A stretch of DNA of 46,555 bases from Octopus sinensis (taxonomy: Eukaryota), in NCBI RefSeq assembly GCF_006345805.1, contig NW_021834542.1, forward strand, positions 1 through 46,555. The letters run 5' to 3'. The position numbers and the translations under genes are program-made. Shown in pieces: positions 1-38,550 of the stretch (within the stretch, counting starts at the first letter, position 1; each line of letters opens with the position of its first letter). Below the pieces are notes generated by a model. The model searched no databases, was not told where the DNA came from, and saw only the letters and a program-made list of their open reading frames with translations.

Positions 1-1817
1 ATATGTATGTATGTAGAGGCAAACCTACACAAATGTGCCCCAGGCGAATGTTTCCTTGTAACTTCTAGAAAAATGGATGTTTTTCAATGAAATTTCTTTC
101 ACAAATATCCTTCAGATGGCAAATATTCCAATTATATCGGAATTTGTTGTGAGAAAAACCTTTTCGGTGGGTGGAGAGAGAAATTTAGGAAAGTTCACCC
201 GAGTCGGCTTTCTTTCCAAAAAAATAGATATTTTCAATAAAACCGTTTCAGATGGTGAAGATTTCGATTATATCGGAATTTAATATGAAGAAAATTATAA
301 AAATTGGTGGATTCGCACAGATATACACTGACACAAAACAGAAAATAAAAAGATGAACTTTGGGAAAATAACCGTGATGTGTGTCAGTATGTATGTGTGC
401 GAAACCATCAAATTTTTAAAGTTTTTTCATGTTAAATTCCGATATAATCCTAATCTACACCATTTGAAAGGTGTATTAGGTGGAAAAATATTAGGTGGAA
501 AAAATCAACAGCATAATATAGTGAAATAGCAACATAATAACAATAACAACAATAATAATACAGTACAATGCAAAACATTATAGATCAGCAAATACATATA
601 AAATGAAAAATATTGATTGACATCAGCAAAATCCAGAAGTGTACATGCATATAAAGGCATACAAGTCAGACTTTTGACGGTGATATATATTAAGTGGTAA
701 GTTTAGAAATGATTTAAGATTGAAAGCTCAATAGGATTGACTGGAACATTTGAATTTCAATTATCTCCGTTACGGTTGGTTTATTAAGATACACTTACAT
801 ACATACACACGTATATGTGCGCTTACACATATATACATAGATAAACCAAAAAAATAGAAAATACAAGCTTACATACACACATACATACATAACTACGAAC
901 GTATAGATCCATATATATATATATATATATAAACAAATACATATACCCGAAAACAACCACGCACACATATATGTATATATATACATACACATACATACTG
1001 TTAACTAAAATAGTATTAAGAATCATTAAAATTAAGATAATATTAATTGTTAATACAACGAAAGGGGTTGGAAGGGTAATTCGTAATATACAAAAAAGAG
1101 GGGCCTAAAAGGTAGAAAAAGGTAAGGGTTAATAAAAGGCAAAGGTTGGGAATATTGAGATAAAATTTATAAGGGTATAAACTCAAAACACAGATTTACC
1201 ATAACCAGTGTAAAGAAGATGTAGGTTATTTGCATAAGATACATAATTAAAAATTACACCACATATTCCGTAAACAATCAGAAGACTAGGAAACCGTCCA
1301 GATATCAACACTTGTAAATTTTATCTGAATATTTTCCAACAGTAATCAGACACAAGAACAGGAGTAAAGAGGGAGGACAATTTATTAAATGAACCCCTGG
1401 ATATTACTGGTACAGATTTTGACCCCAGGAGTTGAACTTGGAACACAAACGGATCAAAGTAAGGTGATGATTCTGCATTTAGCCCAGGGCCAGAGGAAAG
1501 AGGAAAATTTCAAGAGAAGGTGGGGGGTGAGGTGTTTTACATGGAATGAAAGGAAGAAGGGAGAGGATTTGAACCTGTAACGTTGAGGTAACGAAGGATG
1601 AGATGAAGTAAAGAATCCAGTCAGGTAACAACAACAACAACAACAATAATTATGATGATTAATTAATGAAGTTAGATTACAGTGTCATTAGAGTGTGAGA
1701 GAGAGAGAGGGGTGAAGCATGACGACCCATGGTGGGATTATGACATGAATGACTCGAAACAAGAAAACAAAGATTAAAGAAACAGATTTGGATAATCCAA
1801 ATCCATTGGGGACTTAC

Positions 1818-2176
1818 TTTTGAACTGCCAGATGGAGAGGGGTGTCACCCTCGAGGTTCACCTTATTGACATCGATGCCATTCTGTTGCAGGAGAAAATC
1901 AACAACATCCTTGCGTCCATGAAAAGAGGCAAGATGTAGAGGGGTGTCACCTTGCTTGGTCTCAGCATTAACATCCGTGTCTTTATGTTTCAGGAGAAGT
2001 TCAACAACGTCCTTGCTTCCATAGCGACAGGCAACATGGAGAGCTGTCCAACCTTTGTTCTCCACAGCATTAACATCGATGCCATTCTGTTGCAGGGGAA
2101 GTTCAACAACGTCCTTTCTTCCACAGCAACAGGGAAAATGGAGAGCTATCCAACCGTCTCTCCTTTGCTGATTAAC
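1818..2176 (-). CDS. Ankyrin gene large exon C, module 1 (3 x 102-bp repeats plus a half repeat); gene continues past the left edge
   Basis: AG acceptor at 2178-2177 and GTAAGT donor at 1817. 359 nt = 3x102+53, open frame VNQQRRDGWIALHFPCCCGRKDVVE...GDTPLHLAVQ. Window start matches intron sequence (7091, 12651) that lies ~140 bp from a B exon, so another B exon is expected just outside the window. Confidence 0.88.
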
Positions 2177-2622
2177 CTAAAAAAAATAAACAATAAAGAC
2201 ATTAAAGATGGTGTTTATTGGGGAAAGAAGGAAAAAAAATGAAAAATGTCAGAAAAACAGAATCAGATTAATTTAAACAGGTGGAATGAAGGTGAGGGGA
2301 AAATAAATGAGATTTATAATGTATCTATACACACACACATTTGTGTATGCATATATATATATATACACTCTCGCACATACATATATACATAAATACCTAT
2401 ATATACATACGTGTTTTATATCTTCACGGATCATTTGTTTATGCATTTTTGTGTATATATGCGTTTATGTGTGTGTATATTTGTGTATGTACAGGTCTGT
2501 GTGAGCTGAAGAAAAGTTTTTAATCAAAAACATATAAATATAAACTGTTTCATATACATAAAACACAAACCAACATACATATCATTATACACACACACAC
2601 ATATATATATATATTCGCTGAC

Positions 2623-2779
2623 CTGTAAATTGTTATTTTCTTTGCTATTTAACAGGACTTTGACTACATCTTCATAGTTCTTCCTCACAGCCAGATGTAG
2701 AGGTGTGTTGCCCCCTGAGTCCTGCTTATTAACATTTGCTCCACTGGAGACTAAGAAGGCCACAACATCAGTTTTGTGG
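2623..2779 (-). CDS. Ankyrin gene small exon B, module 1
   Basis: AG acceptor at 2781-2780 and GTCAGC donor at 2622. 157 nt. HKTDVVAFLVSSGANVNKQDSGGNTPLHLAVRKNYEDVVKVLL... Confidence 0.9.
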
Positions 2780-3189
2780 CTGAAAGGAAGAAAAACAAAC
2801 ATAAAACATCACATTCACTTAATAATTACATCAAATATACACTCGTGTTCCATTAAATGCATAAAAACCTATATATACTACAGCCTCGTGTGTGTGTGTA
2901 TGTATATATATAAATATATCTATATATATATATATATATATATAAAAGTTATAGAAAAACAAAACGGATTTGGGTGAATTTTGAGAAAGTTTGAAAATTT
3001 GTTTTTACAACAATTTCCGATATAATTGGAATCTTCATCATCTGAAGCATTTTTGTGAAACAAATTCGTCGTGGGGCCCATATGGACGCATATATATATA
3101 TATACACACACACACGTACATTATATATCACCGGTACATATCGCTAGTTGAAATGTCAAAGTCAATAATATTATACAGGTGTATATGTG

Positions 3190-3236
<47 letters not shown>

Positions 3237-3790
3237 GCATGTATGTGTATGTATGTATATATATATATGTATATATATAGAGAGACAGACAGACAGAGAA
3301 ATATGAGCCACTGAAATACGTATAATCGTTAATACACAGTAGACAAATGTGTACGTGTGTGTGTATACACATATTAATAGGTGAGGGTATAAAGTATAAA
3401 TATTTTTATCCCAGCGAGTGTACAATAGAAAACAAGGATTAAGTACCGTTGTTAGTATCTATATATTTGGTATACATTGAAAAATGTATTGTAACCCTTT
3501 TGCGAAAGATGGAATGTCTGAAAATTATAGACAAACTAATTGATAGCAGATTTCTCATCAATCTAAAAAAAAAACAACAGCAGCACGTCGTAATTGGCGG
3601 GAAAACTACGTCTGCAAATGTAATGTTGTCATAGCAACAGACTATGCAAGAGAAAGTTTGCTGTTAAGGGCAACGAGGCGTATTTTTACCGCCAAAAGAA
3701 ACAGTAAAGTATGGCGGTCATATAACACACATAAATGAATATATAAACACACAAATATTTATTATATATGTGTGTGTATACATATATATT

Positions 3791-3825
<35 letters not shown>

Positions 3826-4667
3826 ATATAAGTTAAACTCCAGTGTTTGACTCGAGCAAAAAAAAATTGTGCAATAGGTGTAAAATAAAATGTAAAATGA
3901 ATATGTAAAAAAAAAATACACTCTGGCGAACGAGGGGCGGTGGAGACGACTCGGAAAATTCACACGATCAATCTCACAGGATCCGAAAACTACATGTTGT
4001 TTTATACCTGTTACACTTTTTGTTTTCATTTTTGGGACCGGTTGTCGAGTGGGGTTACCGGATCGTGTGAATCATCCGAGTCCGCACCCCAGATATACAC
4101 TGACACAAAACAGAAAATAAAAAGATGAACTTTGGGAAAATAACCGTGATGTGTGACAGTATGTATGTGTGCGAAACCATCAAATTTTTAAGTTTTTCAT
4201 TTAAATTCCGATATAATCCTAATCTACACCATTTGAAAGGTGTATTAGGTGGAAAAAATATTAGGTGGAAAAAATCAACAGCATAATATAGTGAAATAGC
4301 AACATAATAACAATAACAACAATAATAATACAGTACAATGCAAAACATTATAGATCAGCAATACATATAAAATGAAAAATATTGATTGACATCAGCAAAA
4401 TCCAGAAGTGTACATGCATATAAAGGCATACAAGTCAGACTTTTGACGGTGATATATATTAAGTGGTAAGTTTAGAAATGATTTAAGATTGAAAGCTCAA
4501 TAGGATTGACTGGAACATTTGAATTTCAATTGTCTCCGTTACGGTTGGTTTATTAAGATACACTTACATACATACACACGTATATATGCGCTTATACATA
4601 TATACATAGATAAACCAAAAAGACAGAAAATACAAGCTTACATACATAACTACGTACGTATATATCC

Positions 4668-4698
<31 letters not shown>

Positions 4699-5579
4699 AA
4701 TACATATACCCGAAAACAACCACGCACACATATATGTATATATATACATACACATACATACTGTTAACTAAAATAGTATTAAGAATCATTAAAATTAAGA
4801 TAATATTAATTGTTAATACAACGAAAGGGGTTGGAAGGGTAATTCGTAATATACAAAAAAGAGGGGCCTAAAAGGGTAGAAAAAGGTAAGGGTTAATAAA
4901 AGGCAAAGGTTGGGAAATATTGAGATAAAATTTATAAGAAGGGTATAAACTCAAAACACAGATTTACCATAACCAGTGTAAAGAAGATGTAGGTTATTTG
5001 CATAAGATACATAATTAAAAATTACACCACATATTCCGTAACAATCAGAAGACTAGGAACCGTCCAGATATCAACACTTGTAATTTTATCTGAATATTTT
5101 CCAACAGTAATCAGACACAAGACAGGAGTAAAGAGGGGGGACAATCTATTAAATGAACCCCTGGATATACTGGTACAGATTTTGACCCCAGGAGTTGAAC
5201 TTGGAACACAAACGGATCAAAGTAAGGGGATGATTCTGCATTTAGCCCAGGGCCAGAGGAAAGAGGAAAATTACAAGAGAAGGGGGGTGAGGTGTTTTAC
5301 ATGTAATGAAAGGAAGAAGGAGAGGATTTGAACCTGAACGTTGAGGTAACGAAGGATGAGATGAAGTAAAGAATCCAGTCAGGTAACAACAACAACAACA
5401 ACAATAATTATGATGATTAATTAATGAAGTTAGATTACAGTGTCATTAGAGTGTGTGAGAGAGAGAGAGAGAGGGGTGAAGCATGACGCCCCATGGTGGG
5501 ATTATGACATGAATGACTCGAAACAAGAAAACAAACATAAAGAAACAGATGGGATAATCCAAATCCATTGGGGACTTAC

Positions 5580-6346
5580 TTTTGAACTGCCAGATGGAGA
5601 GGGGTGTCACCCTCGAGGTTCACCTTATTGACATCGATGCCTTTCTGTTTCAGGAGAAAATCAACAACATCCTTGTGTCCACGAGTAGAGGCAATATGAA
5701 GAGGGGTGTCACCTTGCTTGGTCACAGCATTAACATCCGTGTCTTTATGTTGCAGGAGAAGTTCAACAACGTCCTTGCTTCCATATTGACAGGCAAGATG
5801 GAGAGCTGTCCAACGATCTTTCGTCACAGCTTTAACATCCGTGTCTTTATGTTGCAGGAGAAGTTCAACAACGTCCTTGCTTCCATAGCGACAGGCAAGA
5901 TGGAGAGCTGTCCAACGATCTTCCTCCACAGCTTTAACATCCGTGTCTTTATGTTTCAGGAGAAGTTCAACAACGTCCTTGCTTCCATAGCGACAGGCAA
6001 AATGGAGAGCTGTCCAACCTTTGTTCTCCACAGCATAAACATCCGTGTCTTTATGTTGCAGGAGAAGTTCAACAACGTCCTTGCTTCTATAGCGACAGGC
6101 GAAATGGAGAGCTGTCCAACGATCTTCCTCCACAGCTTTAACATCCGTGTCTTTATGTTGCAGGAGAAGTTCAACAACGTCCTTGCTTCCATAGCGACAG
6201 GCAAAATGGAGAGCTGTCCAACCTTTGTTCTCCACAGCTTTAACATCCGTGTCTTTATGTTTCAGGAGAAGTTCAACAACGTCCTTGCTTCCATAGCGAC
6301 AAGCAAGATGCAGAGCTGTCCAGCCCAATTTATTTTTCTGATTAAC
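5580..6346 (-). CDS. Ankyrin gene large exon C, module 2 (7 x 102-bp repeats plus a half repeat)
   Basis: AG acceptor at 6348-6347 and GTAAGT donor at 5579. 767 nt = 7x102+53, open frame. Confidence 0.9.
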
Positions 6347-6797
6347 CTAAAAAAGATGAACAATAAAGACATTAAAGATGGTGTTTATTGGGAGAAGAAG
6401 GAAAAAAATGAAAAATGTCAGAGAAAAAGAATCAGATTAATTTAAACAGGTGGAATGAAGGTGGGGGGAAAATAAATGAGATTTATAATGTATCTATACA
6501 CACACACATATGTGTATGCATATATATATATTATATCACTCTCGCACATACATATATACATAAATACCTATATATACATACGTGTTTTATATCTTCACGG
6601 ATCATTTGTTTATGCATTTTTGTGTATATATGCGTTTATGTGTGTGTATATTTGTGTATGTATGTACAGGTCTGTGTGAGCTGAAGAAAAGTTTTTAATT
6701 AAAAACATATAAATATAAACTGTTTCATATACATATAACACAAATCAACATACATATCATTATACACACACACACATATATATATATATTCGCTGAC

Positions 6798-6953
6798 CTG
6801 TAAATTGTTATTTTCTTTGCTATTTAACAGGACTTTGACTACATCTTCATAGTTCTCCTCACAGCCAGATGTAGAGGTGTTTCGCCCCTTGAGTCCTGCT
6901 TATTAACATTTGCTCCACTGGAGACTAAGAAGGCCACAACATCAGTTTTGTGG
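6798..6953 (-). CDS. Ankyrin gene small exon B, module 2 (carries a 1-bp deletion: frameshift or consensus error)
   Basis: Same splice sites as the other B exons but 156 nt. It reads 'agttctcctc' at 6851-6860 versus 'agttcttcctc' in module 1, giving a TAG at 6841-6839. Confidence 0.7.
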
Positions 6954-7106
6954 CTGAAAGGAAGAAAAACAAACATAAAACATCACATTCACTTAATAAT
7001 TACATCAAATATACACTCGTGTTCCATTAAATGCATAAAAACCTATGTATACTACAGCCTCGTGTGTGTATATATATATATATATGTGCAAATATGTATT
7101 ATGTAA

Positions 7107-7830
7107 AGGCAAACCTACACAAATGTGCCCCAGGCGAATGTTTCCTTGTAACTTCTAGAAAAATGGATGTTTTTCAATGAAATTTCTTTCACAAATATCC
7201 TTCAGATGGCAAATATTCCAATTATATCGGAATTTGTTGTGAGAAAAACCTTTTCGGTGGGTGGAGAGAGAAATTTAGGAAAGTTCACCCGAGTCGGCTT
7301 TCTTTCCAAAAAAATAGATATTTTCAAATGAAATTTTCAATAAAACCGTTTCGGATGGTGAAGATGTCGATTATATCGGAATTTAATATGAAGAAAATTA
7401 TAAAAATTGGTGGATTCGCACAGATATACACTGACACAAAACAGAAAATAAAAAGATGAACTTTGGGAAAATAACCGTGATGTGTGTCAGTATGTATGTG
7501 TGCGAAACCATCAAATTTTTAAAGTTTTTTCATGTTAAATTCCGATATAATCCTAATCTACACCATTTGAAAGGGATTTGTAGAAATTTTCACAGAAACA
7601 AAATATCCACTTTTCTGAAAGTTATAGAAAAACAAAACGGATTTGGGTGAATTTTGAGAAAGTCAACTCCTCAACGTTTGAAAATTTGTTTTTACAACAA
7701 TTTCCGATATAATTGGAATCTTCATCATCTGAAGCATTTTTGTCAAAGAAATTTCATTAAAAAATATCAATTTGTCTCAAAGTTATAAGGAAACAAATTC
7801 GTCGTGGGACCCAGTTGTGTAGGTATGCCT
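7107..7830. mobile_element. Non-autonomous DNA transposon (MITE-like) with long imperfect terminal inverted repeats
   Basis: Left 'aggcaaacctacacaaatgtgccccaggcgaatg...attatatcggaatt' is the imperfect reverse complement of right 'aatttccgatataatt...gtcgtgggacccagttgtgtaggtatgcct'. Internal repeats of 'cagatgg...attatatcgga'. No ORF; superfamily unassigned. Partial copies at 17-470 and 2945-3080. Confidence 0.7.
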
Positions 7831-7978
7831 ATACATATGCACGCATATATATATTTATAGGATCTCGAGTATCGAGTACCAACGTCTGGCTAGCGCGCAC
7901 GCGCGAATCCGCGTGTGCGCAACCGGGACCACTCTGCGATAATGTCAAAGTCAATAATATTATACAGGTGTATATGTG

Positions 7979-8011
<33 letters not shown>

Positions 8012-8567
8012 GCATGTATGTGTATGTATGTATATATATATGTATGTATATAGAGAGACAGACAGACAGAAATATGAGCCATGAAATACGTATAATCGTT
8101 AATACACAGTAGACAAATGTGTACGTGTGTGTGTATACTCATATTAATAGGTGAGGGTATAAAGTATAAATATTCTTATCCCAGCGAGTGTACAATAGAA
8201 AACAAGGATTAAGTACCGTTGTTAGTATCTACATATTTGGTATGCATTGAAAAATGTATTGTAATCCTTTTGCGAAAGATGGAATGTCTGAAAATTATAG
8301 ACAAACTAATTGATAGCAGATTTCTCATCAATCTAAAAAAACAACAACAACAGCAGCACGTCGTAATTGGCGGGAAAACTACGTCTGCAAATGTAATGTT
8401 GTCATAGCAACAGACTATGCAAGAGAAAGTTTGTTGTTAGGGGCAACGAGGCGTATTTTTACCGCCAAAAGAAACAGTTAAGTATGGCGGTCATATAACA
8501 CACATAAATGAATATATAAACACACAAATATTTATTATATATATGTGTGTGTATACATATATATATT

Positions 8568-8600
<33 letters not shown>

Positions 8601-9430
8601 ATATAAGTTAAACTCCAGTGTTTGACTCGAGCAAAAAAAAATTGTGCAATAGGTGTAAAATAAAATACACTCTGGCGAACGAGGGGCGGTGGAGACGACT
8701 CGAAAATTCACACGATCAATCTCACAGGATCCGAAAACTACATGTTGTTTTATACCTGTTACACTTTTTGTTTTCATTTTTGGGACCGGTTGTCGAGTGG
8801 GGTTACCGGATCGTGTGAATCATCCGAGTCCGCACCCCAGATATACACTGACACAAAACAGAAAATAAAAAGATGAACTTTGGGAAAATAACCGTGATGT
8901 GTGACAGTATGTATGTGTGCGAAACCATCAAATTTTTAAAGTTTTTTCATGTTAAATTCCGATATAATCCTAATCTACACCATTTGAAAGGTGTATTAGG
9001 TGGAAAAAATATTAGGTGGAAAAAATCAACAGCATAATATAGTGAAATAGCAACATAATAACAATAACAACAATAATAATACAGTACAATGCAAAACATT
9101 ATAGATCAGCAAATACATATAAAATGAAAAATATTGATTGACATCAGCAAAATCCAGAAGTGTACATGCATATAAAGGCATACAAGTCAGACTTTTGACG
9201 GTGATATATATTAAGTGGTAAGTTTAGAAATGATTTAAGATTGAAAGCTCAATAGGATTGACTGGAACATTTGAATTTCAATTGTCTCCGTTACGGTTGG
9301 TTTATTAAGATACACTTACATACATACACACGTATATATGCGCTTATACATATATACATAGATAAACCAAAAAGACAGAAAATACAAGCTTACATACACA
9401 CATACATACATAACTACGTACGTATAGATC

Positions 9431-9979
9431 AGCAGGTCTTTTGTTAGCGGCTCTCCAGCCATCTATTTAAAACTGTATACAGCTATGGTACGACCACACT
9501 TGGAATTCGCATCATCAGTTTGGAATCCCTATCTTGCTCAGAACATTGACCTCCTGGAATCTGTCCAGAGACGTGCAACCAAACGCATACCCTCCATCAG
9601 ACACCTACCATATTCTGAGCGCCTTGTTTCCCTGGGCATGATTCACTGAAGCTCCGCGTCTGGCGACGGACTTGGTAAACACCCACAAAGTTATCAACCA
9701 CCTCACCAACAACAACACTGAACACCTTTTTGATCTCCATGTGTCTAACACACGTGGACATGCCTACAAAGTAAGAAAACAACACACGCTCCCATGACTT
9801 TCGGAAACATTTTTTCACGCTCAGAGTTGCTGAAGCATGGAATAAACTGCCTGCATCAATTGTTGACTGCCATGACACTGCATCATTTAAGGCCCTCATG
9901 CTTTCCGAAATCCACCGAAACTACACCTGATTATATATACACTTTAGATGAGTTGTAGTGCACCTGAGCACTGTACACA

Positions 9980-10012
<33 letters not shown>
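9431..10012 (+). mobile_element. 5'-truncated CR1-type LINE with (TTA)n tail, present only in module 3
   Basis: Translates to LKLYTAMVRPHLEFASSVWNPY...LLESVQRRATKRI...YSERL, and after frameshifts TRGH and FFTLRVAEAWNKLP, typical of the CR1/L2 ORF2 C-terminus. Absent from the equivalent sites at ~910 and ~4668. Confidence 0.88.
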
Positions 10013-10029
<17 letters not shown>

Positions 10030-10929
10030 TATAAACAAATACATATACCCGAAAACAACCATGCACACATATATGTGTATATATATACATACACATACAT
10101 ACTGTTAACTAAAATAGTATTAAGAATCATTAAAATTAAGATAATATTAATTGTTAATACAACGAAAGGGGTTGGAAGGGTAATTCGTAATATACAAAAA
10201 AGAGGGGCCTAAAAGGGTAGAAAAAGGTAAGGGTTAATAAAAGGCAAAGGTTGGGAAATATTGAGATAAAATTTATAAGAAGAGTATAAACTCAAAACCC
10301 AGATTTACCATAACCAGTGTAAAGAAGATGTAGGTTATTTGCATAAGATACATAATTAAAAATTACACCACATATTCCGTAAACAATCAGAAGACTAGGA
10401 AACCGTCCAGATATCAACACTTGTAAATTTTATCTGAATATTTTCCAACAGTAATCAGACACAAGAACAGGAGTAAAGAGGGGGGACAATTTATTAAATG
10501 AACCCCTGGATATTACTGGTACAGATTTTGAGCCCAGGAGTTGAACTTGGAACACAAACGGATCAAAGTAAGGGGATGATTCTGCATTTAGCCCAAGGCC
10601 AGAGGAAAGAGGAAAATTACAAGAGAAGGGGGGTGAGGTGTTTTACATGGAATGAAAGGAAGAAGGGAGAGGATTTGAACCTGTAACGTTGAGGTAACGA
10701 AGGATGAGATGAAGTAAAGAATCCAGTCAGGTAACAACAACAACAACAACAATAATTATGATGATTAATTAATGAAGTTAGATTACAGTGTCATTAGAGT
10801 GTGTGAGAGAGAGAGAGAGAGGGGTGAAGCATGATGCCCCATGGTGGGATTATGACATGAATGACTCGAAACAAGAAAACAAACATTAAAGAAACAGATT
10901 GGGATAATCCAAATCCATTGGGGACTTAC

Positions 10930-11900
10930 TTTTGAACTGCCAGATGGAGAGGGGTGTCACCCTCGAGGTTCACCTTATTGACATCGATGCCTTTCTGTTT
11001 CAGGAGAAAATCAACAACATCCTTGTGTCCACGAGTAGAGGCAATATGAAGAGGGGTGTCACCTTGCTTGGTCACAGCATTAACATCCGTGTCTTTATGT
11101 TGCAGGAGAAGTTCAACAACGTCCTTGCTTCCATATTGACAGGCAAGATGGAGAGCTGTCCAACGATCTTCCTCCACAGCTTTAACATCCGTGTCTTTAT
11201 GTTGCAGGAGAAGTTCAACAACGTCCTTGCTTCTATAGCGACAGGCAAAATGGAGAGCTGTCCAACCTTCGTTCTGCACAGCATTAACATCCGTGTCTTT
11301 ATGTTTCAGGAGAAGTTCAACAACGTCCTTGCTTCCATAGCGACAGGCAAGATGGAGAGCTGTCCAACCTTCGTTCTTCACAGCATTAACATCCGTGTCT
11401 TTATGTTTCAGGAGAAGTTCAACAACGTCCTTGCTTCTATAGCGACAGGCAAAATGGAGAGCTGTCCAACCTTTGTTCTCCACAGCATTAACATCCGTGT
11501 CTTTATGTTTCAGGAGAAGTTCAACAACGTCCTTGCTTCCATAGCGACAGGCAAGATGGAGAGCTGTCCAACGATCTTCCTCCACAGCTTTAACATCCGT
11601 GTCTTTATGTTTCAGGAGAAGTTCAACAACGTCCTTGCTTCCATATTGACAGGCAAAATGGAGAGCTGTCCAACCTTTGTTCTCCACAGCTTTAACATCC
11701 GTGTCTTTATGTTTCAGGAGAAGTTCAACAACGTCCTTGCTTCCATAGCGACAGGCAAAATGGAGAGCTGTCCAACCTTTGTTCTCCACAGCTTTAACAT
11801 CCGTGTCTTTATGTTGCAGGAGAAGTTCAACAACGTCCTTGCTTCCATAGCGACAGGCAAGATGCAGAGCTGTCCAGCCCAATTTATTTTTCTGATTAAC
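10930..11900 (-). CDS. Ankyrin gene large exon C, module 3 (9 x 102-bp repeats plus a half repeat)
   Basis: tttttag acceptor at 11902-11901 and GTAAGT donor at 10929. 971 nt = 9x102+53, phase 0 to 2. Repeated GWTALHxACxYxSKDVVELLLxHKDTDV. Confidence 0.93.
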
Positions 11901-12353
11901 CTAAAAAAGATAAACAATAAAGACATTAAAGATGGTGTTTATTGGGAGAAGAAGGAAAAAAATGAAAAATGTCAGAAAAACAGAATCAGATTAATTTAAA
12001 CAGGTAGAATGAAGGTGGGGGGAAAATAAATGAGATTTATAATGTATCTATACACACACACACATATGTGTATGCATATATATATATATATACACGCACG
12101 CACATACATATATACATAAATACCTATATATACATACGTATTTTATATCTTCACTGATCATTTGTTTATGCATTTTTGTGTATATATGCGTTTATGTGTG
12201 TGTATATTTGTGTATGTATGTACAGGTCTGTGTGAGCTGAAGAAAAGTTTTTAATTAAAAACATATAAATATAAACTGTTTCATATACATAAAACACAAA
12301 CCAACATACATATCATTATACACACACACACATATATATATATATTCGCTGAC

Positions 12354-12510
12354 CTGTAAATTGTTATTTTCTTTGCTATTTAACAGGACTTTGACTACAT
12401 CTTCATATTTATTCATCACAGCCAGATGTAGAGGTGTTTCGCCCCCTGAGTCCTGCTTATTAACATTTGCTCCACTGGAGACTAAGAAGGCCACTGCATC
12501 AGTTTCGTGG
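12354..12510 (-). CDS. Ankyrin gene small exon B, module 3
   Basis: ttcag acceptor and GTCAGC donor. 157 nt, phase 2 to 0. HETDAVAFLVSSGANVNKQDSGGETPLHLAVMNKYEDVVKVLLNSKENNNLQ. Confidence 0.9.
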
Positions 12511-12664
12511 CTGAAAGGAAGAAAAACAAACATGAAACATCACATTCACTTAATAATTACATCAAATATACACTCGTGTTCCATTAAATGCATAAAAACC
12601 TATGTATACTACAGCCTCGTGTGTGCATATATATATATATATATGCAAATATGTATGTATGTAG

Positions 12665-13388
12665 AGGTAAAACTACACAAATGTGCCCCAGACGAATGTT
12701 TCCTTGTAACTTCTAGAAAAATGGATGTTTTTCAATGAAATTTCTTTCACAAATATCATTCAGATGGCAAATATTCCAATTATATCGGAATTTGTTGTGA
12801 GAAAAACCTTTACGGTGGGTGGAGAGAGAAATTTAGGAAAGTTCACCCGAGTCGGCTTTCTTTCCAAAAAAATAGATATTTTCAAATGAAATTTTCAATA
12901 AAACCGTTTCGGATGGTGAAGATTTCGATTATATCGGAATTTAATATGAAGAAAATTATAAAAATTGGTGGATTCGCACAGATATACACTGACACAAAAC
13001 AGAAAATAAAAAGATGAACTTTGGGAAAATAACCGTGATGTGTGTCAGTATGTATGTGTGCGAAACTATCAACTTTTTAAAGTTTTTTCATGTTAAATTC
13101 CGATATAATCCTAATCTACACCATTTGAAAGGGATTTGTAGAAATTTTCACAGAAACAAAATATCCACTTTTCTGAAAGTTATAGAAAAACAAAACGGAT
13201 TTGGGTGAATTTTGAGAAAGTCAACTCCTCAACGTTTGAAAATTTGTTTTTACAACAATTTCCGATATAATTGGAATCTTCATCATCTGAAGCATTTTTG
13301 TCAAAGAAATTTCATTAAAAAATATCAATTTGTCTCAAAGTTATAAGGAAACAAATTCGTCGTGGGGCCCAGTTGTGTAGGTATGCCT
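12665..13388. mobile_element. Second full copy of the ~720-bp MITE (module 3)
   Basis: Near-identical to 7107-7830. Confidence 0.7.
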
Positions 13389-14129
13389 ATACATATGCAC
13401 GCATATATATATTTATAGGATCTCGAGTATCGAGTACCTACGTCTGGCTAGCGCGCACGCGCGAATCCGCGTGTGCGCGACCGGGACCACTCTGCGATAA
13501 TGTCAAAGTCAATAATATTATACAGGTGTATATGTGTGTATATATATATATATTTATATATATATATGCATGTATGTGTATGTATGTATATATATATGTA
13601 TGTATATAGAGAGACAGACAGACAGAGAAATATGAGCCACTGAAAACGTATAATCGTTAATACACAGTAGACAAATGTGTACGTGTGTGTGTATACTCAT
13701 ATTAATAGGTGAGGGTATAAAGTATAAATATTTTTATCCCAGCGAGTGTACAATACAAAACAAGGATTAAGTACCGTTGTTAGTATCTACATATTTGGTA
13801 TACATTGAAAAATGTATTGTAATCCTTTTGCGAAAGATGGAATGTCTGAAAATTATAGACAAACTAATTGATAGCAGATTTCTCATCAATCTAAAAAAAA
13901 ACAACAACAACAGCAGCACGTCGTAATTGGCGGGAAAACTACGTCTGCAAATGTAATGTTGTCATAGCAACAGACTATGCAAGAGAAAGTTTGTTGTTAA
14001 GGGCAACGAGGCGTATTTTTACCGCCAAAAGAAACAGTTAAGTATGGCGGTCATATAACACACATAAATGAATATATAAACACACAAATATTTATTATAT
14101 ATATGTGTGTGTGTATACATATATATATT

Positions 14130-14164
<35 letters not shown>

Positions 14165-14233
14165 ATATATGTTAAACTCCAGTGTTTGACTCGAGCAAAA
14201 AAAAATTGTGCAATAGATGTAAAATAAAATGTA

Positions 14234-14610
14234 TTAAACGAATATGTAAAAAAAAATACACTCTGGCGAACGAGGGGCGGTGGAGACGACTCGGAAAATT
14301 CACACGATCAATCTCACAGGATCCGAAAACTACATGTTGTTTTATACCTGTTACACTTTTTGTTTTCATTTTTGGGACCGGTTGTCGAGTGGGGTTACCG
14401 GATCGTGTGAATCATCCGAGTCCGCACCCCACCCACCCGCCCTGTCACAAAAATTGAACAAAAGTAGAGTACCGGGTGTAAAATAATGTGTAAAAAACGA
14501 AAATGAAGAACAAAAAATTCGCCGACGAACGGGGAAGTGGTGAGATTTGAATTTTCCGAGTCGTCTCCCCACCTCCCGTTCGCCATATTTTTTTTTTTCA
14601 TATTCGTTTA
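14234..14610. repeat. Imperfect inverted repeat element (probable DNA transposon remnant)
   Basis: 'taaacgaatatg...tggcgaacgaggggcggtggagacgactcggaaaattca' versus 'tgaattttccgagtcgtctccccacctcccgttcgcca...catattcgttta'. Modules 1 and 2 carry only the left arm. Confidence 0.6.
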
Positions 14611-14824
14611 CTACATGTTGTTTCACACCTATTGCACTATTTTTTTCCTTTTTTCTTTGCTTGGGCCAAACACTAGATTTTAACCTAATGTTTCCCTCCT
14701 CTGTCTTCTCCATCTGAAGGAGCCATGTCCCTCTTCTAATGCAAGACACCTTTCTCTCCAGCAATATTAGCTCCCCCACCTCACCACCTCAACCAGTCGA
14801 GAGGTCTTTGTCTCGCAATTAACT

Positions 14825-15023
14825 GGTGACCTCACTGGTTTGGATGGCATGTAAAAGGCATCCAGTACACTCTGCAAAGTGGTTGGTGTTAGGAAGGTCG
14901 TCCAGCCATAGAAACCAAACCTAAGCAGACAGTAGTGTTTGGTGTGGTCTTCTGACTTGTCTGTTCCTATCAAACCCTCCTACCCATGCCAGCATGGAAA
15001 AGGAACATTCGATGACGATGATG
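14825..15023 (+). mobile_element. Degenerate RTE-LINE/SINE 3' end
   Basis: Similar to 24790-24976 (gtggttggtgttaggaagg...cccatgccagcatggaaaa...gatgacgatgatg). Confidence 0.7.
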
Positions 15024-15747
15024 GTGTGTGTGTGTTTGTGTGTTTGTGCAAAATTCTGGAACAATTTGTGACTGCAGAAGCTATAGAAACTAACAAGAAC
15101 TTCAAAACATGTTTTATTGTCCAGAGATGACCTTATGAAGCACAATTCAAAATATAATAGATCTCAAAATGTGTTGAGTGAGTTGCAGATGGAGGTGAGA
15201 AATAATTTCTGTAAGAAATTTACAGATTATTTACTGTCAAAACAAGCTAGAGAATCTTTCTTGTTGCTTTAGATCTCAAATAACATTTTCTTTGGAGAAA
15301 AATTGATCGATCTCCCCATAATCAATATGAAGAGAAGGCACTGAATCAGAATGGGTCAATCTTAAGAACTGTTGGCTCTCAAAGAATATCTCCATACTTT
15401 GTTATATATATACTGATATGTATGCATGTATGTATAGGATGACTCACGAGTCATCTTCGTAGTCATAAAGCGAGACAGATGAGTGACAACCTGGCCACTG
15501 GTGGTGGTGTAACGCACCATACTAATCATATCTGTTTTGACAAAAAATAATGAAAAAGATTTTTGTGATTCAATGAAGATGATTCATGGAGAAAATGAGA
15601 AAAAGATGTTATTTGGCTACTACTACCATGTTGTTATCGTGTCACACTGCCTCTATTATGGTATCTTTGGATATTCAAATAGTCTGGAATTGCAAAAAAT
15701 TTCAAAACAAAAGCAGATCTGAAGATTTTAATTAATTCAAGCCTTAC

Positions 15748-15899
15748 CTTTCCACAGCATAATGCAATGCTGTATTCTTGCCTTCGTCACTGATGTCTAT
15801 ATTGGCTCCAGATTCTATCAAGAAGGCTATTAGACTTGTGCTGCCCTGTTCACAAGCCGCCATTAAGAAAGTTTTACTGTCTGAACCTTTTTGGTTGAC
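15748..15899 (-). CDS. Ankyrin-repeat gene exon 2 (VNQKGSDSKTFLMAACEQG...GANIDISDEGKNTALHYAVE)
   Basis: (CT)n tract plus AG acceptor at 15901-15900 and GTAAG donor at 15747. 152 nt, phase 0 to 2. Clear ankyrin motifs (GANID, TALHYA). Confidence 0.9.
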
Positions 15900-16086
15900 C
15901 TGAAGAGAAGAAAGAGAAGATATATAAAATATATCAAAGGAGAGAGAGAGATAGAGAGAGAGAGGAGGGAAGAATAGAGAGAGAGAGAGAGAGAGAGAAG
16001 AGAAGAGAGAGTAAAGAAGATGCTGGAGTGAAAGAAAGGGATATGAAAGACGAAGAAAGAAAGATACACACACACACACACACACC

Positions 16087-16206
16087 AGTGTGCAACATGA
16101 AATAGAATGTCTTGCTGAAGAATACAACACACAGCCCAGACTGGGAATCAAACTCACTATCTCCTGATTGTGAACCTGTTGCCCTAACCATTGAGTCATG
16201 CGCCTT
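16087..16206 (-). mobile_element. tRNA-derived SINE 5' head
   Basis: Minus strand 'ggcgcatgactcaatggttagggc...gagtttgattcccag': degenerate Pol III A and B boxes followed by SINE body. Confidence 0.65.
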
Positions 16207-16254
16207 CATATACATATACACACATACACACACCCATGTATGTATGTATGTATG

Positions 16255-16950
16255 TAAGGGTGGAGGAACTCTTGAGAGTCAACAGCCTTCCAATAAATGT
16301 CTTAAGGCTGTATCATGCACGGGAACATAGAAATAATTGGACTGAATACCCGATCGCGCGGTTAAACCATTGGGAGTGAAGGACTCCTAGCCTTTGTTAG
16401 GGCATCCTTCTAGGCGAAGGTAACTCAGGTAACTGGGATAACTCCGGCATAAAACCTGCAGCTCAGTGGTTGCCGATGATGTTGACTTGTTCTTCTTTTC
16501 GGATTATGGCTGCTGTTGCTTAGTGAGTGGGATTGACTCAGTGCACAGCCTTTCCTCACTTTTACTATATCCATACTTTGTTATATATATGCTGATATGT
16601 ATACATGTATGTATGTATAGGATGACTCACGCGTCATCTTCATAGTCATAAAGCGAGACAGATGAGTGACCACCTGGCCACTGGTGGTGGTGTAACACAC
16701 CATACTAATCATATCTGTCGGGCATGTGGAAGAGAGTGTAATTCGGCAGGAGGACTTAAACGACATGCAAAGGTACATGAAGCCCAGTTACAACTACAGC
16801 CGGCTATTACCAGTAAAGGTCTTAGTTGCCAATTTTGTACAAGACATTGTAGATCTTTAGCTGGGTTAAAAAGTCACATTCGATCACAGCATCAATAACA
16901 GTTAAGTTTCGTGCAATGGCCATACTCGATAACAAGGGGGCAGCCATCAT
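16255..16950 (+). mobile_element. Internally deleted RTE-type LINE remnant with two C-terminal C2H2-like motifs
   Basis: ORF 16662-16898 has CRACGRECNSAGGLKRHAKVH and CQFCTRHCRSLAGLKSHIRSQH, matching the CxxCxRxCxSxxGLxSH motif that ends RTE-BovB-like ORFs. The assignment of 16255-16570 as the 5' UTR is tentative. Confidence 0.6.
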
Positions 16951-16959
16951 GTATAGGTT

Positions 16960-17470
16960 ACATCTCCAATCTGGTATGCTCATTTTGTCCAGAATGCCAA
17001 TCTACTGGAAGCTGTCCACAGATGTACAACCACACAAATAGCCTCTCTCAATCACTTATTATTCCTTAAAAGTATTGCTTCTCCATGCATCAACACAGAA
17101 TTTTGTCATTTCTAGCAACTCACTTGATCCCACAAGATTATCCCTCATCTTCCAATAACAAATTTGACCACTTCTGGAATTTAATATCTTTACCACTCTG
17201 AGACATGCTTATAAAGTAAAAAAAAAACACCCATCCCAGTTTCCATGATATCAGAAACAATATTTTTATGCTCAGAATTGTCAAGGCATGGAATAAACTA
17301 TCTACGTTGGTTGTTAGCTGTATCCTTCAAAAACACCACACTTTCTGTAATTCAGAAACACTACATCTGAGGTTCCTATGAACCCTTTCCTTTTTGTGGT
17401 TCTTTTACTGCTCCCTTTTCTGTCTTTTAGTGTTCTATCCCGTGAACGATGGCATGCACTTTAGATGGTC
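16960..17470 (+). mobile_element. Old degenerate CR1-type LINE 3' end related to 9431-9980
   Basis: 'ctggaagctgtccacagatgtacaacc', 'gacatgcttataaagta' and 'ctcagaattgtcaaggcatggaataaacta' align in order with the younger copy. Confidence 0.7.
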
Positions 17471-18859
17471 ATTAGTGTCTTTCTTTACATGACTTGTGCT
17501 TCCTGTCCTTTCATAGAAGTGGACAGAGCAATATCGAAGGAAATCAGTTCAAATATACCGTTTCATGGTAGATGGAAGAGTCTTTCTTATGAAACATAAG
17601 ATGTCTGTCTTAGGGAAAAAAAATCAGTTGAGAAAATCTACCAGTTTATTACTGGTATGTATGATATCAATTATGAATTGAAGAGAATACTGACAAGATT
17701 TCAAATGTGGTATCTGATAGGAGACACACAGGTAAATAAGAGAAACCATCTACACAAAGCAACTGTAGGGATTAGGCAATAAGATGGTGTATAAAGTAAC
17801 TGAACAGGGGAAGAGCTATAAAGGGTCAAAACCTCAGAAATAATTGTGTAGATTCTAAATATATCAGACTGGATTTTAGTTTAGTATTCCCTGGTAAAGC
17901 TCATGAAATTCTACACTGTGTTATCACTGATGCCTGGCATAGTAGCACTTTCATTTAATGCTATAATGATGAAAGAGATTTAAGAAATGGTGAGAGAAGA
18001 ACAGGATGTTTGAAATGAAGCATGGATCTTCAGATGTCATATGTCTGGTGAAACAGCAACATGAGATCTTGGAAAAGAATGAAAGCAAATCTACAAGAAA
18101 GGTGTAGAGCACAGGTAAATCAAGGTGAAAAAAGCTTAGAAAGACTGTTTAGTTCATGCATAAGCTCAAGGAAAAGATTGAAAATCTATTTATGTTAGTC
18201 ACTGAATCTATTACAAAGTAACTACTTGTAATTAGACATCTGTGACATCTTTGGAACGATACCAACCACAGCTAAATATGTGCAACTATGGAAAAGGAGG
18301 AGACACAAATGAAAAGAAACAATGGAGAAAATAAGAAATATTCTGAAAGTAGGGATCAGAATTTTGAGCCTAAATGAGGCAGCAGCGGTGTCAGGGCTTA
18401 CATTAGTTTGTAGCCATACAATATGTAAGAAGGTGTGAGTGGTTCATACACAACTGTATTACACCTGTACAAACAACACTATCGACTTCTCCTTGAGGAA
18501 AACACCTACCCTCACTAAACTGGCAGACATTCACCCACCATTGAAATACATGTATGATGGTCATCAAGAAAATAAAGGATGTTTTTTCTGCATTTCACCA
18601 TTTGTCAGCTGTCTTCCCTCCCAAATTAAAGCCTCATTTTCTGGTCTCTTACCAAGAGTATCTCTATAGATTTTACAGAATCATTCCACCCACCACTCCC
18701 TAACCATGATGGTTCTCTGATCCAAACTCAACTACACATTGAGTTTCATATATTTGTATGACCATAGCCTGGTCCTTATAAAATTTTCCACAACCCCTAC
18801 CCAAGGGTAGCACTACTCTCTTAGAGAAGCCCTGTTTTATAATTCTTGCTGATAGTGTC

Positions 18860-19275
18860 CTATCTGCTGACTACCAGCCAGTCATTCTAACTTCCAATAT
18901 TTCAATTATAAAGTAAAAAGTCATAAACAACCATCATCTTTGTCCCTTTGGGTATCTTTCTCTATTCAATGAGCCCCAGAACAGTTCCATAAAGCCGGTT
19001 CAAGCAGGGGTCTGATTCCTACGTGACTCCCCAGGGTTTTGGTTATGTTTGACAACTTCTGCAAAAGAAATACTGTAGCCCTTGACATCGGTAAAACCTT
19101 CAACTGTGTATGGCAAGAGAATTTCTTGACAAAGTCACCATTTATCTATTGGGTCCATCTGTCCCCCATCTCTTGGACTGAATATTTCCTGCCAGAATAC
19201 TCCATTGCAGTGTGTGAGGATGGGTTTCTCTCTCACTCACATTCCATCAATTCTGGCATGCCTCATTGTCTGGTT
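18860..19275 (+). mobile_element. Degenerate LINE reverse-transcriptase fragment (CR1/Jockey-like)
   Basis: Decayed RT motifs in the right order: DYQPVILTS, VALDIGKTFNCVWQ, SINSGMPH. Confidence 0.7.
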
Positions 19276-19439
19276 GAATATTTATAAAAAGTGACAATGA
19301 TGAGGATTAGAGGAAAGAGGTAAAGAAAGAAATGAAATATTATGGACAAATATATCTGGTTATTTAGGAACATTTAATATTGTGTATAAAATAATAAACA
19401 AACATTCAACATTGAAGAAGCAATATAAAGTAAACTTAC

Positions 19440-19523
19440 TTGATCAGGATTTTCTTTGATAAGTCGTTTCACATCTTCAAAGTCTCCATTCTGAATCTTG
19501 CTTATAATCTTATTTACATCCAT
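19440..19523 (-). CDS. Ankyrin-repeat gene, probable first coding exon (MDVNKIISKIQNGDFEDVKRLIKENPDQ, N-cap-like repeat)
   Basis: Pyrimidine tract plus AG acceptor at 19527-19526, then AC-ATG. 84 nt (28 codons) to a GTAAGT donor at 19439. Phase 0 joins the next exon in frame. Not in the ORF track. The ATG could be internal if further coding exons lie upstream. Confidence 0.75.
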
Positions 19524-19604
19524 GTCTTTTGAATAAAAAGGAAAGTAAGATAATTTTTAAAAACTTATAAAATGAGGTAAAGAGCAATTTAAAGAAGACG
19601 GAAC

Positions 19605-19790
19605 AGCTCATTTGTGAAATTAACATGCAAATGGCTGAGTACACCAAAGACGCGTGTATCCCTAATGTTGTTTTGAGGGAGATTCAGCATGACACAGAGT
19701 GTGACAAGGCTGACCCTTTGAAATACAGACACAACTCATTTTCACTGAGTAGACTGGAGCAACGTGAAATAAAGGTTCTTGCTCAAGGAA
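19605..19790 (-). mobile_element. SINE body fragment
   Basis: 'gactggagcaacgtgaaataaaggttcttgctcaagga' is the same family motif as at 16095-16125. Confidence 0.6.
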
Positions 19791-20014
19791 TCCTCCTACT
19801 CATTCCCCACCCCACCAACCCACCAACTCTCTGCGCATGAGTGGCTGGGGAAGCAAGCATATTAATGTGTTAATGCGTATCCGCAGGTTTGTATGTAATT
19901 GGACGCATCTATCAATGGTGCTACCACAAACCCCAGTTTTGCTTGATTATTGCACCCAGAATCTCTTACTGGTCACCTGATATGTTATCTACTTACCCGC
20001 CTGTCTCCCCTCTC

Positions 20015-21766
20015 TTAACCCTGTTGATACTAACCTGGCTGTAACTGCTTCTGGGCTCTGTGGTAAAATGTCTTGTTTCCATAAGTTTTGAATTAAAATT
20101 CTCCACCAAACCTTAGTCACAATATATGTTCCTAACACTAGCTTAATGATGACTAAGTTATTTTACTAAATTCTTTGTTATATTTAAAATTAATTGAAAG
20201 AAACACAGAGCATCTCAACAGAAATATGTTAACAAAAGGGTTAAAATATATAATAGAGAAACAATTCTTAACCCTTTTGGTACCAGCCTGGCTGAAACTG
20301 CTTCTGGGCTCTGTAGTACAAATGTCTTGTTTCCAAAAGTTTTGAATTAAAATTCTCCACCAAACCTTAGTCACAATATATGTTCCTAACACTAGCTTAA
20401 TGATAACTAAGTTATTTTACTAAATTCTTTGTTATATTTAAAATTAATTGAAAGAAACACAGAGCATCTCAACAGAAATATGTTAACAAAAGGGTTAAAA
20501 TATATAATAGAGAAACAATTCTAACCCTTTTGGTACCAGCCTGGCTGAAACTGCTTCTGGGCTCTGTAGTACAAATGTCTTGTTTCCAAAAGTTTTGAAT
20601 TAAAATTCTCCACCAAACCTTAGTCACAATATATGTTCCTAACACTAGCTTAATGATAACTAAGTTATTTTACTAAATTCTTTGTTATATTTAAAATTAA
20701 TTGAAAGAAACACAGAGCATCTCAACAGAAATATGTTAACAAAAGGGTTAAAATATATAATAGAGAAACAATTCTTAACCCTTTTGGTACCAGCCTGGCT
20801 GAAACTGCTTCTGGGCTCTGTAGTACAAATGTCTTGTTTCCAAAAGTTTTGAATTAAAATTCTCCACCAAACCTTAGTCACAATATATGTTCCTAACACT
20901 AGCTTAATGATAACTAAGTTATTTTACTAAATTCTTTGTTATATTTAAAATTAATTGAAAGAAACACAGAGCATCTCAACAGAAATATGTTAACAAAAGG
21001 GTTAAAATATATAATAGAGAAACAATTCTTAACCCTTTTGGTACCAGCCTGGCTGAAACTGCTTCTGGGCTCTGTAGTACAAATGTCTTGTTTCCAAAAG
21101 TTTTGAATTAAAATTCTCCACCAAACCTTAGTCACAATATATGTTCCTAACACTAGCTTAATGATAACTAAGTTATTTTACTAAATTCTTTGTTATATTT
21201 AAAATTAATTGAAAGAAACACAGAGCATCTCAACAGAAATATGTTAACAAAAGGGTTAAAATATATAATAGAGAAACAATTCTTAACCCTTTTGGTACCA
21301 GCCTGGCTGAAACTGCTTCTGGGCTCTGTAGTACAAATGTCTTGTTTCCAAAAGTTTTGAATTAAAATTCTCCACCAAACCTTAGTCACAATATATGTTC
21401 CTAACACTAGCTTAATGATAACTAAGTTATTTTACTAAATTCTTTGTTATATTTAAAATTAATTGAAAGAAACACAGAGCATCTCAACAGAAATATGTTA
21501 ACAAAAGGGTTAAAATATATAATAGAGAAACAATTCTTAACCCTTTTGGTACCAGCCTGGCTGAAACTGCTTCTGGGCTCTGTAGTACAAATGTCTTGTT
21601 TCCAAAAGTTTTGAATTAAAATTCTCCACCAAACCTTAGTCACAATTTATGTTCCTAACACTAGCTTAATGATAACTAAGTTATTTTACTAAATTCTTTG
21701 TTATATTTAAAGTAATTGAAAGAAACACAGAGCATCTCAAAATAAATACAGTAATGAAAGGGTTAA
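20015..21766. repeat. Satellite of 7 piggyBac-type MITE copies, 254-bp period
   Basis: Units start at 20015, 20268, ~20522, 20775, 21029, 21283 and 21537. Each reads TTAA-CCCTTTTG...CAAAAGGG-TTAA plus a 23-bp spacer. Confidence 0.92.
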
Positions 21767-38156: not shown

Positions 38157-38550
38157 GGGTAATAATTGTAGTAAGCAGGAAGTAAGTGTTCTCAGCCGAT
38201 AAGGCTATTCATTGTGTTTTTCGTGGAATTATATTTATCTATACATTCTATCTTCCTTTTATTAAGTAGTAAAAGATAAAATATTATATATATATATGAC
38301 AAGATTTAAGATGAGAAAATGTTTTCTTTACCTTGAATCAGAAGTTTTCAGTTGGATAAGTTTGAGTTTTAAGGTTCTCAGCTGAGTAAGTTTGTTGGGA
38401 GATTTAAATTTGGGGATATGAATCTTCAAGTTCTCTCGTTGGTATGAATAAAATGATTTTAGATTCATAGGTTTATATAATTGTAGTAAGCAGGAAGTAA
38501 GTCGTCTCAGCCAATAAGGCTATTCATTGTGTTTTTCGTGGAATTTTATT

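Follow-up and report, generated by a model that had tools for sequence, protein, structure and literature searches.

The DNA analysed here, referred to as the window, is the whole of an unplaced contig of 46,555 nucleotides (46.6 kb; G000:C11013, NCBI contig NW_021834542.1) from the 2.7-Gb genome of Octopus sinensis, and it carries tandem arrays of near-identical ankyrin repeats. These arrays form exons of an octopus gene in which the ankyrin repeats appear to have been shuffled by recombination, and it is fairly likely, judging from the sequence, that the product is a variable intracellular recognition adaptor in which a diversified ankyrin face is coupled to a RING and a death domain. The mixing takes place at two levels, that of single repeats within an exon and that of whole two-exon blocks. 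An immune or non-self role for the product may reasonably be inferred.

Tandem Repeats Finder placed 102-bp tandem arrays at 1865-2155, 5641-6322 and 10977-11876, all three of which code for ankyrin repeats of 34 amino acids (aa) on the minus strand. Comparison of the window with itself revealed a module of 3.8-5.6 kb present in three tandem copies, each consisting of a one-repeat exon A of 157 nucleotides (nt) and a multi-repeat exon B (971, 767 and 359 nt for B3, B2 and B1, respectively), with AG/GT ends on all exons. The third, shorter module (array 1818-2176) and the one-repeat exon in each module extend a preliminary description of this DNA, which had concerned the two longer arrays. The gene opens with a 28-codon exon, with the ankyrin exons next, and its features, from 5' to 3', are as follows.

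38332..38350, minus strand: candidate 3' end of an untranslated first exon, with a GT donor; the sole match of an RNA loose end at 19528.
19440..19525, minus strand: first coding exon, with its ATG at 19523; 100% identical over 29 aa to Octopus vulgaris P0122; RNA joint 15899-19444.
15748..15899, minus strand: exon Z, single copy, ankyrin; phase 2 at its end, as in all B exons.
8838..14431: module 3, A3 and B3 with introns.
12354..12510, minus strand: exon A3, single ankyrin repeat, 157 nt, phase 2 to 0; RNA joints 12510-15748 and 12510-10930.
10930..11900, minus strand: exon B3, 971 nt, 10 ankyrin motifs including seven near-identical internal 102-bp units, AG/GT ends, phase 0 to 2; 3' end supported by RNA joints.
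4090..8837: module 2, A2 and B2 with introns.
6798..6953, minus strand: exon A2, 156 nt, one base shorter than A1 and A3 (near 6854) and frameshifted as assembled.
5580..6346, minus strand: exon B2, 767 nt, open frame, eight ankyrin motifs including five internal units, AG/GT ends.
318..4089: module 1, A1 and B1.
2623..2779, minus strand: exon A1, single ankyrin repeat, 157 nt.
1818..2176, minus strand: exon B1, 359 nt, short array; 119 of 120 aa (99%) identical to the O. vulgaris ANK-RING-Death protein P0024.

As phase 2 ends exon Z and each B exon and also starts each A exon, the addition or skipping of a module keeps the frame and any subset of modules can be joined. The introns of modules 2 and 3 are about 2% apart in substitutions. 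Module 2 carries 14 private 1-bp deletions, compared with 3 and 1 in the other modules, and because of this excess the frameshift in A2 is probably a consensus error of the assembly; exon B2 is free of indels. Module 1 was at one point regarded as the last module, an assignment that was dropped once bases 1-945 were found to match the intron leading into a further A exon in the paralog G000:C9539. A fourth module therefore probably lies beyond the contig end. Open frames of 295 and 363 aa over the arrays on the plus strand were rejected as by-products of a stop-free repeat, since the coding strand indicated by Pfam matches, splice sites and RNA joints is in each case the minus strand.

Comparison of the repeats was based on 12 internal units, five from module 2 and seven from module 3, with the first, the last full and the final half repeats excluded. 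All 12 were distinct, with a mean identity of 93.8% in nucleotides (88.2-99.0) and 86% in amino acids. Variable sites numbered 15 of 102 and fell in 9 of the 34 codons, and a single one of them was purely silent (TTT/TTC). Every cassette named in the preliminary description was recovered, the hairpin being ENKG in five units, EEDR in four (spread over both modules) and KNEG, QNEG and TKDR in one each, with L/F at 5/7, R/Q at 9/3, G/R at 9/3, K/Q at 6/6 and K/N/Y at 8/3/1. Its account of near-identical units, few synonymous differences and a unit combination and order differing between modules 2 and 3 was likewise sound. B2 and B3 are almost the same in their terminal repeats (2/102, 0/102 and 0/50 bases different), yet the internal units are five in B2 and seven in B3 and stand in a different order; given the similarly low divergence of the introns, this points to reshuffling after or around a recent duplication. 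At the codon level, ENKG, CQY and RS alleles recur on other contigs, and EEDR, TKDR, KNEG and QNEG were confined to the window gene among the loci compared.

In a four-gamete test of the 12 window units, all four combinations were present in 34 of the 55 informative site pairs. None of the 13 pairs within 7 nt was incompatible, compared with 34 of the 42 farther apart, and incompatibility grew with distance (r=0.64, permutation p=0.0003). The best tree required 26 steps, the minimum being 16, and simulations without recombination under uniform mutation reached the observed level in 0.6% and 0.07% of runs (p=0.006 and 0.0007). Block-wise recombination of variants among units is supported by these tests, in agreement with the unequal crossover or gene conversion previously proposed. 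Exchange between paralogs was suggested by a different comparison, as the 5' part of the gene (15050-15930) resembled G000:C27:8.21 Mb most (97%) and C9539 much less (83%), whereas the module introns (10500-11050) were closest to C9539 (95%), such that the window gene looks chimeric.

The positions randomised in designed ankyrin repeat proteins (DARPins) were taken to be 2, 3, 5, 13, 14 and 33 in ankyrin numbering. The variable set of ANK-N5C comprises positions 2, 3, 5, 10, 13 and 33, according to the accessible part of PMC4308713. Five of the 14 amino acid replacements in the window fell at the six DARPin positions (p=0.08-0.13), six on the ANK-N5C set (p=0.025) and 10 in hairpin and helix-1 positions, the last being a set chosen after viewing the data. 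In the predicted structure of B3 (predicted local distance difference test, pLDDT, 95.6), positions 1-4 belong to the hairpin loop and 10 and 13 to helix 1, with 15 and 25 at helix ends. The analysis was widened to a pooled family set of 63 internal units, of which 22 were window-type and 41 sister-type. The motif failed to pick up one unit, and units that were terminal, frameshifted or from duplicate contigs were excluded. Distinct alleles were counted, making the test little affected by recombination, and pooled counts are quoted instead of per-array counts, which double-count variants common to arrays. The six binding-face positions, out of 34, held 33 of the 68 replacements (p=0.001), at a rate 3.1 times the unit-wide silent rate (p=5e-5), or 3.8 times without singletons (p=3e-4), and framework codons were nearly invariant. 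A fixed-class codon model of 58 distinct units gave a binding-face omega of 5.1-6.4 (p=3e-4, and 3e-5 with a separate silent rate).

Exon A, with one repeat per exon, is the cleanest test of selection. Eight of 10 close copies were used, one having been left out for a deletion and one being incomplete; two are near-identical sisters. The six positions of these copies carried 12 replacements, an 11-fold rate relative to the adjacent intron (p=6e-8) and a 3.4-fold rate relative to silent changes in the exon (p=0.007). Across the family, the rate of change in binding-face codons is 3-11 times that of neutral sites, and as relaxed constraint cannot pass the neutral rate, this excess argues against mere relaxation. 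The diversifying selection proposed in the preliminary description was not significant in the window alone, but was supported across the family, in the pooled units, the codon model and exon A alike. Positive selection on the concave face, as in fungal receptors with near-identical (HIC) repeats, was also seen at family level.

Transcription was assessed with contigs of four presumed-RNA runs, from four studies, aligned to 10500-19700 at 88% likeness. Exon bins were covered far above introns, with many intron bins at 0 and exon bins at 120-375 in run X19. The exact joint of the B donor with the A acceptor (10930/12510) was present in two of the four runs (X11 and X19, from different studies), and that of Z with A (15748/12510) in one (X11). 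Splicing from A to B was seen as loose ends, and a loose end from B to a further exon in one of the four runs.

The nearest named proteins came from O. vulgaris, O. sinensis and O. bimaculoides; the O. sinensis records may derive from the window's own genome, those of the other two species being independent. Window exons were 85-100% identical to O. vulgaris models, and introns 91-97% identical to paralogs. Pfam ANK, RING and Death domains were found together in the O. vulgaris relatives P0024, P0025 and P0066, and likewise in P0132 and the exons of C9539, in which six A+B modules are followed by post-ankyrin, RING and Death exons; RING and Death exons are present in the nearest paralogs. Exons 1, Z, A and B, with conserved phases and flanking introns, place the window gene in this octopus ANK-RING-Death family. 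No NACHT, Roc-COR or kinase family was detected in the 20 relatives listed in a search with the C-terminal half (544 candidates, those listed all Octopus), which sets them apart from ROCO proteins and ankyrin kinases, and no NACHT/NB-ARC, Roc-COR or kinase Pfam family was detected in five relatives or in P0132. Among the downstream domains put forward in the preliminary description, it is therefore Death, accompanied by RING, that the nearest relatives possess, and the likeness to NOD-like receptors (NLRs) fails as a statement of class, the nearest relatives having no nucleotide-binding domain. No account of this family was found in the literature as searched by title and abstract start, with supplements and most subscription papers outside that scope, and a search for longer fused relatives gave generic ankyrin proteins only among the best 120 of 2732 matches.

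In the genome, 134 places matched the pre-RING exon, with 150 of 152 candidates scored, and 120 matched the Death exon, for which 138 candidates were scored; matches to exon A numbered 32 (E<=1e-8) and those to exon Z 37 (E<=1e-6). These counts are lower bounds and yet include haplotype duplicates and broken copies. Identical arrays, probably haplotype duplicates, were observed on the contig pairs G000:C103/C10645 and C10744/C27:8.21 Mb, and family counts are inflated as a result. Short and long B exons alternate in C9539 (G000:C9539:34875-65475), indicating a higher-order duplication, and several of its exons are frameshifted as assembled. Between RING and Death, tandem short exons (VCPKSEEKAVQ-like) vary in number (G000:C27:15807903-15808949 and G000:C9539:22241-22667), and the O. 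vulgaris pair P0024/P0025 has a common ankyrin part with different Death ends. In distant members, about 25-40 ankyrin repeats are arrayed in a single exon (open frames of 590-1317 aa), with variability mainly at positions 33-5, 10, 13 and 14, at the following places.

G000:C29:1722842-1726718: distant-member array L059.
G000:C29:3511630-3514689: distant-member array L062.
G000:C29:8813432-8815777: distant-member array L063.
G000:C29:9359307-9361651: distant-member array L061.

One pre-RING match fell within a gene on C26 which has two MIB_HERC2 domains and two RINGs and is therefore MIB2-type. The last ANK, pre-RING and RING exons of the relatives were 41-53% identical to this gene, in the same order, and the family RING gave an ungapped alignment with the first RING of that gene (E=9e-11) and a poor one with the second (E=0.002). 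Such homology indicates that the family descends from the C-terminal half of Mind bomb 2, with the first RING retained. A match of human MIB1 to the pre-RING part in a PDB search was weak (E=0.36), so that the case for MIB descent is built on the MIB gene of this genome; the remaining PDB searches were dominated by ankyrins and DARPins. None of the nine genome matches to MIB_HERC2 lies on the window contig. In comparison with MIB2, the family is without the N-terminal substrate module (MIB_HERC2-ZZ-MIB_HERC2 and SH3 repeats) and without the second, catalytic C-terminal RING of Mind bomb, the relatives holding the RING1 homologue only. It has gained a Death domain and an expanded single-exon array, and has more than 100 matching places as opposed to one gene. 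On this evidence the gene is of MIB2 descent without being a Mind bomb.

Several observations weigh against the reading of the window gene as a recombining and diversified recognition adaptor. Some of these favour neutral concerted evolution instead, in which a young array is homogenised and reshuffled by unequal crossover, face positions vary as they are unconstrained, and many copies are perhaps decaying. The window alone gave 14 replacement and 2 silent steps, a ratio of about 2.0 that is not significant (p=0.26); the binding-face ratio, when taken against silent steps in its own codons by the most conservative path, was only 1.0-1.4; and several family copies contain frameshifts or stops as assembled. 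In the window units, moreover, DARPin positions 5, 14 and 33 are invariant, and 5 of the 14 changes, among them those at positions 15, 25 and 31, are located outside the classic face or on its margin. The fixed-class codon model gave an omega of about 1.3 at the remaining sites, from which it follows that recombination inflates its omega, and an extreme model with 15 mutational hot-spot sites reached the overall incompatibility level in 21% of runs, although it does not give the distance effect. Neutrality was nevertheless judged unlikely, as binding-face replacements at 3-4 times the unit-wide silent rate exceed the neutral ceiling of relaxed constraint, the 11-fold excess over the intron rate occurs in exon A, an exon without internal tandem repeats, and the framework is nearly invariant. 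Further caution concerns the gene model. The 3' exons of the window gene lie past the contig end, consistent with the earlier placing of the C-terminal domain outside the window. The RNA label of the runs is presumed and their organism is coded differently from the best DNA match; the runs show expression and splicing of the family, and their reads may stem from paralogs or another species, not necessarily from the window copy. The B-to-A joint fits concatenated modules, but back-splicing of one module would look alike. It was also considered whether modules 2 and 3 could be alleles assembled in tandem, or their mosaic units a product of polishing with mis-mapped reads, as might be expected from an unplaced contig of this size, from the private deletions of module 2 and from the small divergence of the two modules. 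Such a partial artefact is extremely improbable, given that the same module junction occurs three times in C9539, that B-to-A splicing is seen in RNA-type runs, that EEDR recurs over both modules and other alleles on other contigs, and that B2 itself has no indel.

With regard to function, the product might alternatively be the variable substrate receptor of an active ubiquitin ligase, with the array selecting targets such as pathogen proteins, the RING ubiquitylating them and the death domain recruiting signalling complexes. The diversification data are the same for this as for the adaptor reading, the RING zinc ligands are retained in most relatives, and the family RING resembles IAP/MYLIP RINGs in PDB. 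However, P0127 is without the last cysteine pair, and the family has kept the counterpart of MIB2 RING1, which makes ligase activity doubtful. Human MIB2 no longer ubiquitylated cFLIP when its second RING was mutated, whereas mutation of the first did not have this effect, so that RING2 alone was needed, as described in the available portion of PMC7815719. An active ligase was therefore thought decidedly unlikely. Drivers other than infection, namely self/non-self marking, germline or selfish-element conflict, or cell-identity codes of the nervous system, would all share the fast binding-face change, and MIB2 ancestry ties the family to Notch and cell-death control (PMC7815719, in the part available). 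No signal peptide or membrane segment was evident in the relatives, however, which fits a cytosolic sensor. The death domain, moreover, points to innate-immune or death signalling, and a driver of this kind is accordingly held to be very improbable.

The adaptor reading has its closest counterpart in the fungal HIC NLRs (Podospora ANK Pa_3_8560 and Pa_2_8180, and WD40 HNWD), which, as far as the accessible text of PMC4986451 and PMC13449251 describes them, share with the octopus gene near-identical repeats, variable repeat number, repeat exchange, variation on the hairpin and inner helix, and a large, fast-turning family. The available part of PMC4986451 gives the HIC criterion as >85% identity over at least 100 aa, with repeat-number polymorphism and selection on the hairpin and inner helix, and reports such repeats in about 0.8% of metazoan ANK/TPR/WD proteins; the mean amino acid identity of the 12 octopus units exceeds this threshold, and repeat number varies among octopus modules and paralogs. 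Unlike the fungal receptors, the 20 listed octopus relatives are without NACHT/NB-ARC, the repeats are N-terminal and the effector part is RING and Death; the octopus gene also belongs to an animal, contains introns and has its two-exon module duplicated. It evolves in the manner of fungal HIC NLR repeats and yet is no NLR. In brown algal ROCO-LRR and NB-ARC-TPR candidate receptors and in Tuber ANK NLRs, exon modules, alternative splicing and paralog exchange similarly raise diversity, but each repeat forms its own exon or mini-exon, in contrast to the many repeats per exon and spliceable two-exon block of the octopus gene, and domains and lineage differ (PMC13449251, accessible part). The DARPin/ANK-N5C libraries, as set out in the available part of PMC4308713, resemble the octopus family in a fixed framework with variable positions 2, 3, 5, 10, 13 and 14, whereas the octopus repeats are natural, of 34 aa, and have position 1 also hypervariable and position 33 nearly fixed. 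ANKDD1A/B and arthropod ANK-RING 'mib1-like' clusters, which were the top feature look-alikes in the ESM Atlas and serve as leads only, have domain subsets in common with the family, but none of those listed joins ANK, RING and Death or has near-identical arrays.

The window also contains a number of repetitive and mobile-element features. An imperfect palindrome of about 790 bp (71% self-identity), resembling a miniature inverted-repeat transposable element, lies 5' of A exons at 7069-7859, 12630-13417 and 1-471, with the module breakpoint inside it. Module 3 alone carries a 581-bp fragment (about 9431-10011), 5'-truncated and with a (TAA)n tail, which had no Pfam match and is presumably the 3' end of an element like a long interspersed nuclear element. 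In intron 1, a small plus-strand frame with two C2H2-like fingers (16626-16898) was deeply covered in the RNA-type runs and is probably the end of a multicopy mobile element. Farther along are a 254-bp tandem repeat (20013-21766; 6.9 copies, 98% matches), a Helitron-like fragment of a Pif1 helicase 2B domain on the minus strand (30747-31298; E=4e-14) and, within the long first intron (22500-46400), many recurrences of a microsatellite-rich unit of about 0.9-1.2 kb.

In the mechanism proposed, short-tract gene conversion and unequal crossover would hold the framework of the repeats uniform, exchange variants of the hairpin and of helix 1, and alter repeat number. Duplication and optional skipping of modules would supply the second level of diversity, in the form of longer or alternative solenoids, and selection for new binding specificities would maintain the variants. 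The ankyrin solenoid is predicted to bind foreign or fast-evolving, probably microbial, proteins, with the signal expected to pass via death-domain partners. A broader and more tentative suggestion, possible but less likely to be correct, is that half of Mind bomb 2 gave rise to an animal system of 'natural DARPin' receptors, comprising more than 100 genes, in which the faces are diversified by germline (perhaps somatic) repeat conversion together with splicing choice of in-frame modules, and which signals through death domains without the nucleotide switch of NLRs.

To our knowledge, few variable receptors have been described in cephalopod immunity, and the family would provide a concrete candidate, being large and combining a constant framework with an ankyrin face that changes rapidly and is linked to a death domain. 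It would also mean that receptor diversification of the fungal style, by near-identical recombining repeats, evolved anew in an animal, with a Notch ligase as its starting point. Phase symmetry of the modules permits a sharp comparison of repeat order among individuals, tissues and transcripts.

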